Origin: Candidatus Saccharimonadota bacterium
GTDB lineage: Bacteria; Pseudomonadota; Gammaproteobacteria; Enterobacterales; Enterobacteriaceae
DNA: 6,641 nucleotides
Reading direction: 5' to 3'
NCBI RefSeq assembly: GCF_039383305.1
Contig: NZ_CP135010.1
Location: 1 to 6,641 of the forward strand
The notes beneath the pieces were generated by a model. That model was not told the origin of the DNA, made no database searches, and worked only from the letters and a program-made list of their open reading frames with translations. Below are positions 370-6,641 of the stretch, piece by piece. The first letter of the stretch is position 1. The number at the start of each line of letters is the position of its first letter. The translations under genes were made by a program, and so were the position numbers.

Positions 370-1203
370 TTATAAATTTGCTAATTTTCGTAATTTAAAA
401 TATTCAATATTCACCTGTCGTTTTAACGCATCCACGCCCATTTCACAAAGTTCTTCAATCGAATAACGTTTAATTAACATATTTAAAATATAAGAACGTG
501 CTTTTGTTTCTTTTAATTTAATAATTTTAATAGCATAATTTTTTTGTTTTTTTATTACATGTTTAAATTTTCTTGCTTGAAAAGCGTAATAAATATGTTT
601 TTCTTTAGCCCGTCTTTTAGCTTCTAAACTTGTAATTTTTTTTAAACCGTTTTTCAATAATTTTTTATTGATCCAATCTAATTGTCTTTTTCGAACTTGT
701 TTGAATTTCATTTTCGAAATGTTACATAATAAAAAAAATAAAGGAGTTAAAAAAATCATTTTAGGAATATACATACCTAAAACTTTATCCCATACTTTTT
801 CACATTTTACAAAACCCATCGGTTCCATAAATTGTGTAATTAAACGAGAAGCACGAGTAATAGATTTATTACCAGCTTTTGATTTAGTGGATAATCCACA
901 TTGATCAGAAAGTTTTTCTACAGATGCCATAACTAAAGTAGAAGCAATATTAAAATAATATAACATTGCTTGCACCATAGCACGAAAAGCTCTAGCTCGA
1001 TGTTCATTTAAACGTCTTAAACGAAAAATAGTTTTACCAGTTTTTAAATCTTTTAATTGTCTTGTATAATTAATTTCATGACGTGCTACATCTATTTTTA
1101 AAGCACATTTCATAGCATATCGAATAAAAGCCGGACGTTTTTTAGAATTTAATAATGGTACAAACATTGGATATGGATTATATACATATTTTTTTCTAGA
1201 CAC
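370..1203 (-). CDS. repA: Plasmid replication initiator, IncFII-family RepA (RepA1-like), 277 aa, GTG start
   Basis: By eye, YVYNPYPMFVP and the block QCGLSTKSKAGNKSITRASRLITQF...MYIPK align with R100/R1 RepA1 as I remember it (NPNPVFTP; ECGLATESAAGKLSITRATRALTFL; CYIPT). An in-frame TAG lies 3 codons upstream, so GTG at 1203 is the only start that keeps the conserved N-terminus. AGG (1211-1209) sits 5 nt upstream of the GTG. Confidence 0.9.
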   Translation of the reverse strand: MSRKKYVYNPYPMFVPLLNSKKRPAFIRYAMKCALKIDVARHEINYTRQLKDLKTGKTIFRLRRLNEHRARAFRAMVQAMLYYFNIASTLVMASVEKLSDQCGLSTKSKAGNKSITRASRLITQFMEPMGFVKCEKVWDKVLGMYIPKMIFLTPLFFLLCNISKMKFKQVRKRQLDWINKKLLKNGLKKITSLEAKRRAKEKHIYYAFQARKFKHVIKKQKNYAIKIIKLKETKARSYILNMLIKRYSIEELCEMGVDALKRQVNIEYFKLRKLANL

Positions 1204-1225
1204 TGTAACCTATACTTAGGCGGAC
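1204..1225 (-). promoter_or_regulatory. repA translation-initiation region: GC-rich box 5'-GUCCGCCUAAG-3' (1225-1215, minus sense), 3 nt, SD AGG (1211-1209), 5 nt, GTG
   Basis: Read directly. The box is an island of G/C in almost pure A/T. It is the reverse complement of part of the E1 loop (1338-1351), with a 2-nt bulge. Confidence 0.5.
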
Positions 1226-1307
1226 AAAAATAAAAAATAATTAGTAATACATATATTTTAAAAGAAAAAACTTTCTTAAAAAATATTAACATAAATTTCA
1301 AAAAAAA

Positions 1308-1372
1308 ATTTATATTTAAAAAACCAAATTTGTATCGGTCCGCCCCTAAAGTGGCAAATCTGATATTTTTTA
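1308..1372. promoter_or_regulatory. Element E1: ATTTATATTTAAA 13-mer, then a hairpin (arms 1325-1332 / 1355-1362, 7 of 8 pairs, 22-nt loop TATCGGTCCGCCCCTAAAGTGG). It is flanked by A6 (1318-1323) and T6 (1366-1371), so it looks terminator-like on both strands.
   Basis: Arms CAAATTTG and CAAATCTG were checked for complementarity. The loop is the only G/C-rich stretch in the 321-bp leuA-repA spacer. E1 is homologous to E2 at 3244-3321. It could act as the leuA terminator, as a repA leader structure, and/or as an antisense-RNA hairpin. Confidence 0.55.
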
Positions 1373-3072: not shown

Positions 3073-3155
3073 AGTACCCTTATTATTTTATTAATTTAAA
3101 TATTTTTTATATTTTTTATAAAAATTTTAAAAATATATATTTTTTAAAGAATTTT

Positions 3156-3184
3156 ATTATATCATATTTTTTTTTTTTTGTAAG
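3156..3184 (-). promoter_or_regulatory. Candidate leuA promoter: -35 CTTACA (3184-3179), 17-bp spacer, -10 TATAAT (3161-3156)
   Basis: The -10 is perfect and the -35 matches 4 of 6, with correct spacing. It lies about 85 nt upstream of the leuA ATG. TATAAT-like hexamers are common by chance in DNA this AT-rich. Confidence 0.35.
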
Positions 3185-3213
3185 ATTTTCTATTTTTTTT
3201 TTAAAAAAAAATA

Positions 3214-3241
3214 TTGATATTTTTTTAAAATACTATATAAT
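3214..3241 (+). promoter_or_regulatory. Near-consensus sigma70-type promoter on the plus strand: TTGATA (3214-3219), 16 bp, TATAAT (3236-3241), preceded by an A9 tract (3203-3211)
   Basis: The -35 matches 5 of 6, the -10 matches 6 of 6, and the spacer is 16 bp, all counted directly. It is divergent from the candidate leuA promoter. It points at the E2 hairpin and not at any ORF. Confidence 0.5.
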
Positions 3242-3247
3242 TTATTT

Positions 3248-3320
3248 ATATTTAAATTTTTTTTAAGCCCTCAGAATTATATCAGGCCCGCCCAAGCATT
3301 GGTAATTCTGAGGGTTTTTT
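3248..3320 (+). ncRNA. Candidate small RNA of about 70-75 nt (element E2): AU-rich 5' tail, 12-bp perfect stem, 23-nt GC-rich loop, U6 tail
   Basis: The 5' end is predicted about 7 nt after the -10 at 3236-3241, and the 3' end at the T-run 3315-3320. There is no ORF. All boundaries are predicted, not observed. Confidence 0.4.
3268..3320 (+). terminator. Intrinsic-terminator-like hairpin oriented for the plus strand: CCCTCAGAATTA (3268-3279) / TAATTCTGAGGG (3303-3314), loop TATCAGGCCCGCCCAAGCATTGG, then T6
   Basis: The stem is a perfect 12-bp complement with three G:C pairs at its base. The T6 follows on the plus strand only. On the minus strand the stem is followed by CTTAAAAAAAA. Confidence 0.65.
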
Positions 3321-3357
3321 AATTTTTGTTTATTGTAAAATATTAAAAAATTTTTAA

Positions 3358-5376: not shown

Positions 5377-6461
5377 TATAATATCTTCAATAAATTTTCA
5401 GAAATTTTAGTACCCATAGTACTTGTAGTCACAAAATTTAATCCATTAGAAAGATCTTGTGTAAAATATCCTTGTTTTAAAGTTAATAAAATAGCATTTT
5501 CAATAGCTAATGAAATATTTGTTAAATTAAAAGAATATTTAAATAACATTGCCAATGATAAGATTTGAGCAATTGGATTAGCTAAATTTTTATTTTGTAA
5601 TTCTGGAGCAGATCCACCAGCAGGTTCATATAATCCAAATTTTTTTTTATTCAAAGAAGCAGATGGTAACATACCTAAAGAACCAGTTAAAATAGCACAC
5701 TCGTCAGTTAAAATATCACCAAATAAATTAGGACATAAAATAACATCAAATTGAGAAGGATCTTTTATCAATTGTATAGCAGCATTATCTACATATAAAT
5801 GTGTTAATTGTACTTCAGGAAAATCTTTAGAAACTTTTGTAACCACTTCACGCCATAATATAGAACTTTCTAACACATTGGCTTTATCTATTGATACTAT
5901 TTTTTTTTTTCTTTTTAAAGCTTGTTTAAAAGCAAATTTAGAAATTTTTTTAATTTCATTTGTACTGTATATAGCAGTATCAAATGCGCTTATGTTTTCT
6001 GGATTTAAATTATTACGTCCTTTAGGAAGTCCAAAATAAATTCCTCCAATTAATTCACGTATAAATAAAATATCAAATCCATTTTTTATTATTTTTTCTT
6101 TTAAAGGAGATAGATTATTTAAATTTTTATATAATTTAGCAGGTCTAAGATTAATAAATAAATTAAAAAATTTTCTTAAAAATAAAAGAGAAGAAATTTC
6201 TGGTTTTTTTTCAGGTAATAAATAATTCCATTTAGGACCACCTACTGCTCCAAATAAAATTGCATCAGATTCTTGACAACCTTTTAAAGTATTTTTAGGT
6301 AATGCAGTATTATATTTATCTATAGCTTTTCCTCCAACATCAAATTCTTTAGTATATATTTTTATTTTTTTTTTTTTTTGTATAACAGAAAGAATTTTAT
6401 ATGCTTCTGTCATAATTTCTGGTCCAATACCGTCTCCAGGTAAAATTGCAATTTTATACAT
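5376..6461 (-). CDS. leuB: 3-isopropylmalate dehydrogenase, 361 aa
   Basis: Motifs [45 protein letters not shown] and [10 protein letters not shown] match LeuB. The stop TAA overlaps the leuC ATG by 1 nt (minus-sense TAATG at 5378-5374). Confidence 0.97.
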
Positions 6462-6528: not shown

Positions 6529-6549
6529 TACTATTTTTTTCTTTTTTTT

Positions 6550-6641
6550 CTTTTTCTTCTTTTTTATTTTTTCTTTTTCTTCTTTTTTATTTTTTCTTTT
6601 TCTTCTTTTTTATTTTTTCTTTTTCTTCTTTTTTATTTTTT
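6550..6641. repeat. 23-bp pyrimidine-rich tandem repeat, A-variant: CTTTTTCTTCTTTTTTATTTTTT, 4 perfect copies (6550-6572, 6573-6595, 6596-6618, 6619-6641), preceded by T7-C-T8 (6534-6549)
   Basis: Counted directly. The last unit ends exactly at the last base of the window. The unit differs from the array at 1-69 at a single position (A versus G at unit position 17). Confidence 0.95.

Follow-up and report, generated by a model that had tools for sequence, protein, structure and literature searches.

A conserved hairpin module between leuD and leuA of the Buchnera leucine plasmid is a candidate copy-control RNA gene displaced from its rep gene

Genetic context of the E2 module

The stretch of DNA analysed here (6641 bases, guanine plus cytosine (GC) content of 23%, referred to as the window) represents the complete leucine plasmid, pLeu, of the Buchnera aphidicola that inhabits the aphid Nippolachnus piri, and exhibits 99.9% identity to NZ_CP135007. 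Its protein genes are leuB (6461–5376), which is the first in transcription order, leuC (5376–3985), leuD (3981–3358), leuA (3072–1525) and repA (1203–370), the latter being the only replication gene of the plasmid. All five are located on the minus strand, as had been stated in a first-pass annotation of this DNA. No copB gene was found on the window plasmid, while every RepA homologue that was retrieved belongs to the IncFII_repA family (PF02387). The element under study, designated E2, is a module of promoter, hairpin and T-run at positions 3214–3320 of the plus strand, in the leuD–leuA spacer (285 bp, 13% GC). For comparison with other plasmids, a RepA-alignment scan of genome contigs returned a single locus, and further taxa were obtained through PLSDB and exact-protein contig look-ups.

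Promoter, hairpin and T-run of E2

The E2 module opens with a predicted small-RNA promoter, composed of a −35 hexamer, TTGATA (3214–3219), and a −10 hexamer, TATAAT (3236–3241), separated by a 16-nt spacer; it is one of just two 11/12 promoter matches in the window. An A-rich tract (3203–3213, including A9 at 3203–3211) lies directly upstream of the −35 hexamer and may function in the manner of an UP element. From the −10 hexamer, 26 nt lead to the stem of the hairpin, and transcription is predicted to start at approximately 3248–3250, yielding an RNA of ~70 nt. This RNA would be composed of an AU-rich 5′ tail (3248–3267), which is unpaired in the computed fold, the E2 hairpin (3268–3314) and a T6 run (3315–3320) that would provide its terminator tail. 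The hairpin has a perfect 12-bp stem, formed by the arms CCCTCAGAATTA (3268–3279) and TAATTCTGAGGG (3303–3314), which in the plus-sense RNA extends to up to 16 bp (3265–3280/3302–3317), and a 23-nt loop (3280–3302) with a GC content of 61% versus 13% for the spacer. The loop contains GGCCCGCCC at 3285–3293, as part of a core, GGCCCGCCCAAGCAT (3285–3299), whose complement, UUGGGCGG, differs little from UUGGCG, the motif in the loop of stem-loop I of the I-complex plasmids. When the minus strand is read, it is CUUAAAAAAAA that comes after the stem, in place of a U run. The promoter, A9 tract, stem, loop and plus-strand-specific T6 run were each found where the first-pass annotation had placed them.

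The E2 hairpin is significant on its own. Folding of the plus-strand RNA 3248–3325, a check that had been proposed with the initial description, returned −24.1 kcal/mol (z = −5.2), with none of 200 shuffled sequences performing as well, while the minus-strand fold of E2 reached −19.8 kcal/mol (z = −2.9); in the window the plus-sense fold is therefore the more stable one by 4.3 kcal/mol. In a sliding scan of both strands, E2 represents the most stable 80-nt fold (−24.4 kcal/mol; mean −7.6, standard deviation 3.9), which bears out the earlier assertion that it is the strongest secondary structure in the window, albeit by a narrow margin over a segment inside repA (−24.1 kcal/mol). A simple scan of the window for intrinsic terminators called none, E2 being missed because its 23-nt loop exceeds the 8-nt limit of that scan.

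Conservation and covariation of E2 in related plasmids

Orthologues of E2 were identified in six plasmids from three aphid subfamilies, i.e., those of Nippolachnus, Tuberolachnus, Greenidea ficicola and three Mindarus plasmids. The leuD–leuA spacers of Tuberolachnus salignus (three records) and of two Mindarus species can be aligned to the window over the E2 module only. All six orthologous modules possess a promoter of the form TTGAYW-16/17-TATWAT, with TTGATA, TTGATT or TTGACT as −35 hexamer and TATAAT or TATTAT as −10 hexamer, and all six carry an A-rich stretch upstream of the −35 position. Promoter scores are 11/12 in the Lachninae, 10/12 in Greenidea and 9/12 plus an extended TG in Mindarus, and the distance from the −10 hexamer to the stem ranges from 14 to 38 nt. 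The T-run comprises T8 to T10 in Tuberolachnus and Mindarus keteleerifoliae, is split into T5/T6 in M. japonicus and amounts to T4 only in Greenidea.

The loop core GGCCCGCCCAAGCAT is identical in Nippolachnus, in Mindarus and in all but one of the three T. salignus records, and is represented by AGCCCGCCTAAGCAT in Greenidea. The older T. salignus record, NC_013549 (pleu-BTg; locus L002, 3283–3295), has the loop GGCCGCCAAGC, while the two newer T. salignus assemblies (L001 and L030) have GGCCCGCCCAAGC, as does the window. With respect to the motif UUGGCG/CGCCAA, the window possesses UUGGGCGG/CCGCCCAA, with one extra G/C, and the GCCGCCAAGC of NC_013549 is an exact match; the difference in this record may have arisen through compression during sequencing, or it may be genuine variation, by which the exact CGCCAA motif would be restored. 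Across the six orthologues, the 15-bp consensus stem shows no broken pair and six pairs that are changed on both sides. The first-pass annotation had suggested that related plasmids be compared for the hexamers, for compensatory changes in the stem and for conservation of the loop: every relative that possesses the element (Tuberolachnus, Mindarus and Greenidea) retains the hexamers at the same place and distance from each other, the stem has undergone compensatory changes, and the loop core is conserved.

Between Nippolachnus and M. keteleerifoliae, identity amounts to 76.8% for the E2 module and 82.6% for its hairpin, compared to 67.6–69.5% for leuD, leuA and repA and 59.5% for the remainder of the spacer. 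Judged by these alignments, the E2 module is slower-evolving than leuA, leuD and repA, and its conservation is unlike that of neutral Buchnera sequence. The module occupies the leuD–leuA spacer in the Lachninae and Mindarus, and is located downstream of repA1 in Greenidea; since it lies elsewhere in the latter, a function that is tied to one neighbouring gene is unlikely.

A paralogous hairpin, E1, in the repA leader

A second hairpin, designated E1 (1321–1371, minus strand), is present in the leader of the repA mRNA, where it resembles stem-loop I and matches the covariance model described below with 62 bits. Five E2 and five E1 hairpins can be aligned along both stem and loop, and on the basis of this alignment E2 and E1 are paralogues that share common descent. 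Among these ten sequences, the shared 13-bp stem is 89% paired, with eight pairs changed on both sides; none of 500 shuffles reached the E1/E2 covariation score, and a slide control showed a sharp peak at the true register. A covariance model built from the E1/E2 alignment recovered 12 of 12 copies with 53–77 bits, the E2 of the window scoring 77 bits. When applied to the loci of Aphidinae, Cinara, Thelaxinae, Hormaphidinae, Neophyllaphis and Fukatsuia, the model returned only weak, stem-only matches in Cinara, while in Mollitrichosiphum it detected two decayed copies.

The repA gene starts with a GTG codon (1201–1203) in the conserved context GTGTCTAGA, and 16 nt upstream of this codon lies a GUCCGCC box (1219–1225, minus strand). 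The E1 loop, GGGGCGGACC (1337–1346), includes GGCGGAC, which in the window is complementary to the box over 7 bp, and the two are proposed to be pseudoknot partners. All plasmids that carry E2 also carry E1 in the repA leader, in the same orientation, together with a CCGCC box approximately 16 nt before the GTG codon, and the CCGCC box is found in every plasmid that has E1. In Mollitrichosiphum (L011, ~1208–1330), a change of the loop from GGCGG to GACGG is matched by a compensatory change of the box from CCGCC to CCGUC. This joint change supports an E1 loop–box pseudoknot, which would resemble the activator of rep translation in I-complex and IncL/M plasmids.

A promoter scan in which orthologues were compared found no antisense promoter of at least 9/12 beside E1 (best score 8/12) and no positionally shared sites; furthermore, E1 lacks a T-run in Mindarus. 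The leaders also contain a reading frame for a leader peptide that ends at a TAG at position +5 in repA (..RLS[S/I]GYSV*; 1196–1240, minus strand, in the window). An intact leader peptide can be ruled out for the repA leader of the window, where this frame is decayed and without a start codon; it is intact with ATG starts in Fukatsuia, has no start other than TTG in Mindarus, and is interrupted by stops in Tuberolachnus, Greenidea and Mollitrichosiphum. In the Mindarus repA leaders (L003 ~5430–5500 and L004 ~3280–3350, minus strand), two more small GC-rich hairpins were observed upstream of E1; these are reminiscent of the leader arrangement of Fukatsuia (L016, 2290–2345) and are absent from Nippolachnus and Tuberolachnus.

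The comparison of the two hairpins also bears on which strand of E2 is under selection. Watson–Crick covariation is blind to strand, while wobble pairs discriminate between strands. In the 13-pair stem of E2, all wobbles are G·U in the plus sense, corresponding to A·C mismatches in the mRNA sense, and a pair that is A–U in one species and G–C in another is present as a G·U intermediate in the third Mindarus. The wobbles of E1 are mostly of the opposite kind, and E1 folds better in the mRNA sense. The wobble pairs, being small in number and partly non-independent, are suggestive of the plus strand as the selected strand of E2, in agreement with the conserved plus-strand promoter and T-run.

Predicted pairing between the E2 RNA and E1

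The first-pass annotation had proposed that the RNA would be partly complementary to the repA leader, with GGCCCGCCC of the loop pairing with GGGCGGACC of the leader at eight of nine positions, and this count is correct as read from the sequence. In a scan of the whole plasmid on both strands, from which E2's own locus was excluded, E1 was the best predicted partner of the E2 RNA, with −41.5 kcal/mol (next best −32.7; mean −13.0, standard deviation 4.7), and it is also the top off-locus partner for the E2 loop alone. The suggested target is thus the best one that the plasmid offers outside the E2 locus. Duplexes computed between the E2 RNA and E1 of the same plasmid amount to −39 kcal/mol in the Lachninae, −51 to −52 kcal/mol in Mindarus and −30 kcal/mol in Greenidea, where shuffled sequences give approximately −11 to −16 kcal/mol.

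For each E1, the most similar sequence is the E2 of the same lineage, ahead of any E2 or E1 from other lineages, and eight columns of the hairpin are lineage-specific with identical residues in E1 and E2. This matching fits a co-evolution of the two hairpins. Copy-control antisense RNAs have been shown to act in trans from another replicon (PMC6961859, PMC10724649).

Decay of the system in Cinara and Mollitrichosiphum

In the repA leader of Cinara, E1 and the box have both been lost. The leuD–leuA spacer of these plasmids (loci L007 5924–6054, L010 3219–3370, L017 3292–3423, L027 3308–3438 and L028 3264–3448) retains a hairpin after leuD, with an E2-like or fully compensated stem (e.g., CCTCAGA...TCTGAGG), an AT-only loop and no recognisable promoter; this hairpin has no consistent T-run on either strand. 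In Cinara, the E2 loop, the promoter and the E1 target are consequently gone together. In Mollitrichosiphum, an E2-like hairpin is followed by E1 and then by repA, an order in which the repA leader would contain the two hairpins one after the other. There, the E2-like hairpin, which is devoid of a GC loop, is preceded by a near-consensus promoter, TTGACA-16-TATTAT, in the mRNA sense (L011, 998–1110).

Proposed role of E2 and alternative explanations

From these comparisons it is proposed that E2 (3214–3320, plus strand) is a stand-alone gene for a countertranscript of ~70 nt of the RNAI/Inc RNA/CopA type, which would act in trans on the translation of repA, a proposal that we consider evenly balanced between being right and being wrong. 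In the repA mRNA, the E1 loop GGCGGAC would pair with the GUCCGCC box by the ribosome-binding site, forming a pseudoknot that permits translation of RepA. The E2 RNA, produced from a separate site of the plasmid, would form a kissing contact with the E1 loop through its CCGCCC core and extend this into a longer duplex. Such a duplex would block the pseudoknot and reduce the amount of RepA, by which the copy number of the leucine plasmid would be set. Production of the RNA, its binding to E1, inhibition of translation and the loss by E1 of its own antisense RNA are steps that we infer.

Several observations weigh against this proposal. Promoter-like sites are not enriched in the window (49 observed versus 54.9 ± 8.4 in shuffled sequences), and because this number does not exceed the shuffled expectation in a sequence of 23% GC, the promoter match alone is not significant. 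In the window, E2 is not fully complementary to E1: eight of nine positions pair in the loop, and the perfect core spans 6 nt. In I-complex and IncF systems, as few as one to three mismatches in the loop can suffice to abolish cross-inhibition (PMC10724649, PMC6961859). The within-lineage similarity of E1 and E2 could stem from gene conversion instead of selection for pairing. Moreover, E1 of the Lachninae retains a T6 run, so that a weak promoter of its own is possible, and the 18–19 bits that E2 scores with the Rfam families PK-repBA and PK-repZ are far below the gathering thresholds of 45 and 44, respectively. In Mollitrichosiphum, E1 and the box are kept while the loop of the E2-like hairpin is decayed, indicating that E1 can persist without E2. 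Finally, the stem that is kept without the loop in Cinara implies that the stem has a value that is independent of the loop; the Cinara-type stem is perhaps the 3′ end of the leuBCD mRNA, and part of the conservation of E2 may reflect such a second role.

It is conceivable, yet in our judgement unlikely, that the E2 RNA acts in cis only, pairing with leuBCD read-through transcripts and thereby setting the 3′ end of leuBCD or limiting entry into leuA through duplex formation, RNase III cleavage or interference by convergent transcription, with no role in replication. By its very position, the RNA would be perfectly complementary to a read-through transcript of the minus strand, and the E2 promoter, which is convergent with leuD, stands back to back with a candidate leuA promoter. 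Thus leuA seems to be transcribed from a promoter of its own downstream of E2, as would suit a boundary element. A cis-only role would nevertheless demand a different target in different lineages, as the promoter and loop of Greenidea lie after repA1 and away from leuD and leuA. It also has no need for an invariant GC loop that matches a replication-control motif, and leaves unexplained both the lineage-specific letters common to E1 and E2 and the joint loss of loop, promoter and E1 in Cinara. A cis role on leuD–leuA read-through could coexist with a role in trans.

Less probable still is that the hairpin itself, as minus-strand RNA or as DNA, is the functional entity, be it a stabiliser of the leuBCD mRNA 3′ end, an atypical terminator or a DNA structure, and that the plus-strand promoter is fortuitous. 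In favour of this reading, the Cinara hairpin stands at the same place after leuD, although its loop is AT-only and no promoter is recognisable beside its related or compensated stem; compensation by Watson–Crick pairs is silent on the selected strand, and the lack of promoter enrichment over shuffled sequences points in the same direction. However, the minus-strand stem is followed by CUUAAAAAAAA and lacks a U run, both promoter hexamers, along with the distance between them, are kept across three subfamilies where the surrounding spacer can barely be aligned, and the GC-rich 15-nt loop core is invariant. Furthermore, the wobbles of the 13-pair stem all favour the plus-sense fold, which in the window is also the more stable, and the Greenidea element is not downstream of leuD.

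With regard to the origin of E2, a second repA is located directly upstream of leuA in the Aphidinae, while E2 of Greenidea lies ~400 nt upstream of a truncated second repA. Deletion of repA2 from such an arrangement would leave [E2]-leuA, and this gene order suggests that E2 may have originated as the leader, or control region, of a second replication gene, repA2, that was subsequently lost and of which no remnant is recognisable in the leuD–leuA spacer of the window. The same arrangement, and the orphan inc-RNA genes of defunct replicons that are known in IncF plasmids, would suit a decaying and functionless relic of the repA2 control region that has had too little time to erode, but this is very improbable since the protein genes of the plasmid are less conserved than the module, the changes in its stem are all compensated, its GC-rich loop has withstood a strong AT bias, and the loop did decay where selection evidently lapsed (Cinara and Mollitrichosiphum), which shows the appearance of neutral decay.

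Implications of a trans-acting E2 RNA

If E2 is the proposed trans-acting countertranscript gene, it would present a natural case of a cis-antisense regulator made trans-encoded by duplication, and of a small RNA gene that survives extreme genome erosion for longer than protein genes do. Buchnera is documented to respond to the leucine demand of the host in few ways, among them changes in the copy number and expression of pLeu, and the replication control of this plasmid has been described as unknown (PMC3229713). An RNAI-type gene in combination with a repA-leader pseudoknot would give pLeu control a concrete mechanism in several aphid subfamilies, and the loss of E2 in Cinara and Aphidinae would mark lineages with changed copy control. 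The presence of such a conserved, displaced copy of an antisense-RNA switch suggests that the symbiont, poor in regulators as it is, continues to adjust leucine gene dosage by means of a small RNA.

More speculatively, and in our opinion doubtfully, a former cis-antisense pair may have been split by duplication and subfunctionalisation, leaving E1 as target and pseudoknot element only and E2 as the sole inhibitor in trans, with transcription of the leu operon titrating or occluding E2 and thereby raising the copy number. Because the E2 gene runs towards the leuBCD unit, and its RNA would match the 3′ end of that unit perfectly, transcription of the leucine operon could titrate or occlude the inhibitor. 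In that event, copy number and leu dosage would rise under strong transcription of the operon, constituting an RNA-only feedback in a symbiont that lacks almost all transcription factors.

Neighbourhood of E2 and further features of the plasmid

Back to back with the E2 promoter stands CTTACA-17-TATAAT, preceded by a TG (3156–3184, minus strand), which is a candidate promoter of leuA and lies in a region that can be aligned between Nippolachnus and Tuberolachnus. Given this arrangement, E2 is probably not part of the main leuA leader. The two promoter regions (3116–3179 and 3203–3266) form a 64-nt inverted repeat that is 72% complementary and centred at ~3191, although this may be AT-rich low complexity. 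Activation of leuA by a rep-style pseudoknot was considered and ruled out, as neither a CCGCC box nor a rep-like start context was found upstream of leuA in Nippolachnus, Tuberolachnus or Mindarus.

In the pea-aphid pLeu (L005, 2894–2986), a perfect 45-bp palindrome with a 3-nt loop is present between repA2 and leuA (−57 kcal/mol, z = −15). Homology of E2 to the pea-aphid stem-loop upstream of leuA was rejected, there being neither sequence similarity nor a covariance-model match at that site.

The repA–leuB region, a putative origin, contains tandem arrays at positions 1–111, 234–348 and 6537–6641 of the window, comprising 11.5 perfect copies of the 10-mer AAAAAATGAG and, at the two ends of the window, approximately five copies each of two related 23-mers. 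The GenBank record is 41 bases shorter than the window, presumably because repeat numbers differ. An independently assembled Logan contig (L029, from SRR28869277) corresponds to the window from 3297 down to 350, beginning within the E2 loop and ending in the 10-mer array. Its extent may reflect a transcript end, a coverage effect or an assembly artefact; as the run may be of either DNA or RNA, this contig was not used as evidence.

Comparison with known copy-control RNAs

No Rfam family matched the window above its threshold. In a focused Rfam scan, the lowest E-values were those of PK-repBA (RF01089, IncL/M; 18.8 bits, E = 0.031) and PK-repZ (RF01087, IncI; 18.3 bits, E = 0.035), the sole families with E < 0.1, and both matches are on the minus strand. 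Their alignments place stem-loop I and the UUGGCG-type loop on E2, and in that of PK-repBA the complement of the RNAI promoter region falls on the E2 hexamers. As these models match the minus strand, the plus strand of E2 corresponds to the countertranscript and the minus strand to the target hairpin. The first-pass annotation had likened the build of the RNA to Inc RNA, RNAI and CopA; with the paralogy to E1 and the matches to Rfam models of rep leaders, sub-threshold as they are, this likeness is read as one of descent and not just of build.

The closest counterparts are found in the I-complex (ColIb-P9 repZ, IncB/O and IncK) and in IncL/M (pMU604 repBA), where a countertranscript of ~60–75 nt with a single long stem-loop, its own promoter and a U tail is likewise encoded. 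The target hairpin of these systems, represented here by E1, lies in the leader of an initiator of the IncFII_repA family, and its loop is complementary to a CGCC box by the rep ribosome-binding site, as are the E1 loop and the box of repA; the pseudoknot mechanism of the I-complex provides the background to this comparison (PMC10724649). The loop of E2 reads CGCCCAA against UUGGGCG, i.e., the complement of UUGGCG plus one extra base. In contrast to these systems, E2 is not opposite the rep leader: its sense strand is the leuD–leuA spacer, ~1.9 kb from the repA leader, and its proposed target E1 is located elsewhere on the plasmid and is just partly complementary to it. In addition, the leader peptide, equivalent to repY or repB, is decayed in the window.

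A further comparison may be drawn to CopA/CopT of the IncFII plasmid R1, in which an antisense RNA limits the translation of a PF02387 initiator, as is proposed here by analogy, and in which a major hairpin with a CGCCAA-like loop is followed by a U run. CopA, however, has two stem-loops, while the predicted E2 RNA has one and an unstructured tail, and control in R1 operates via coupling to a leader peptide (tap) and not via a loop–box pseudoknot. The CopA family (RF00042) had no match in the window at E-values up to 10. The plasmid of Fukatsuia symbiotica, a facultative symbiont, encodes a RepA that is 58% identical, together with a RepB/CopB-like gene, and has the same box and start context; its repA leader gave weak matches to CopA (29 bits versus a threshold of 60) and to PK-repZ, the latter aligning the CCGCC box.

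Two structures have previously been reported from Buchnera leucine plasmids, namely an inverted repeat over the 5′ end of repA1 in the pLeu of Tuberolachnus salignus, regarded as a putative regulatory element (Manzano-Marín et al. 2016, PMC4898801), and, in the pLeu of the pea aphid, the palindrome between repA2 and leuA described above, which was noted as a conserved stem-loop preceding leuA (Viñuelas et al. 2011, PMC3229713). Neither report describes the leuD–leuA module, an antisense promoter or a link to RNAI-type or pseudoknot control. A full-text search returned no papers that link Buchnera plasmids to antisense or pseudoknot replication control, while older subscription papers may mention these hairpins.

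The E2 module is finally comparable to trans-acting copA or inc cassettes, such as those employed for plasmid curing, in which the RNA gene is apart from the rep gene that it affects and works by diffusion. The RepFIC remnant of plasmid F is such a copy-control RNA gene of a defunct replicon. Cloned copA and IncK antisense elements block their target replicons in trans (PMC6961859). These inc determinants, however, involve two plasmids, or a leftover copy beside an intact cis copy, whereas in this obligate endosymbiont, whose plasmid has a single replicon, the separate copy appears to be the only one whose promoter is conserved. By these comparisons, E2 would be a copy-control countertranscript gene that has moved away from its rep gene and is maintained independently of it on an endosymbiont plasmid, an arrangement that would be new.

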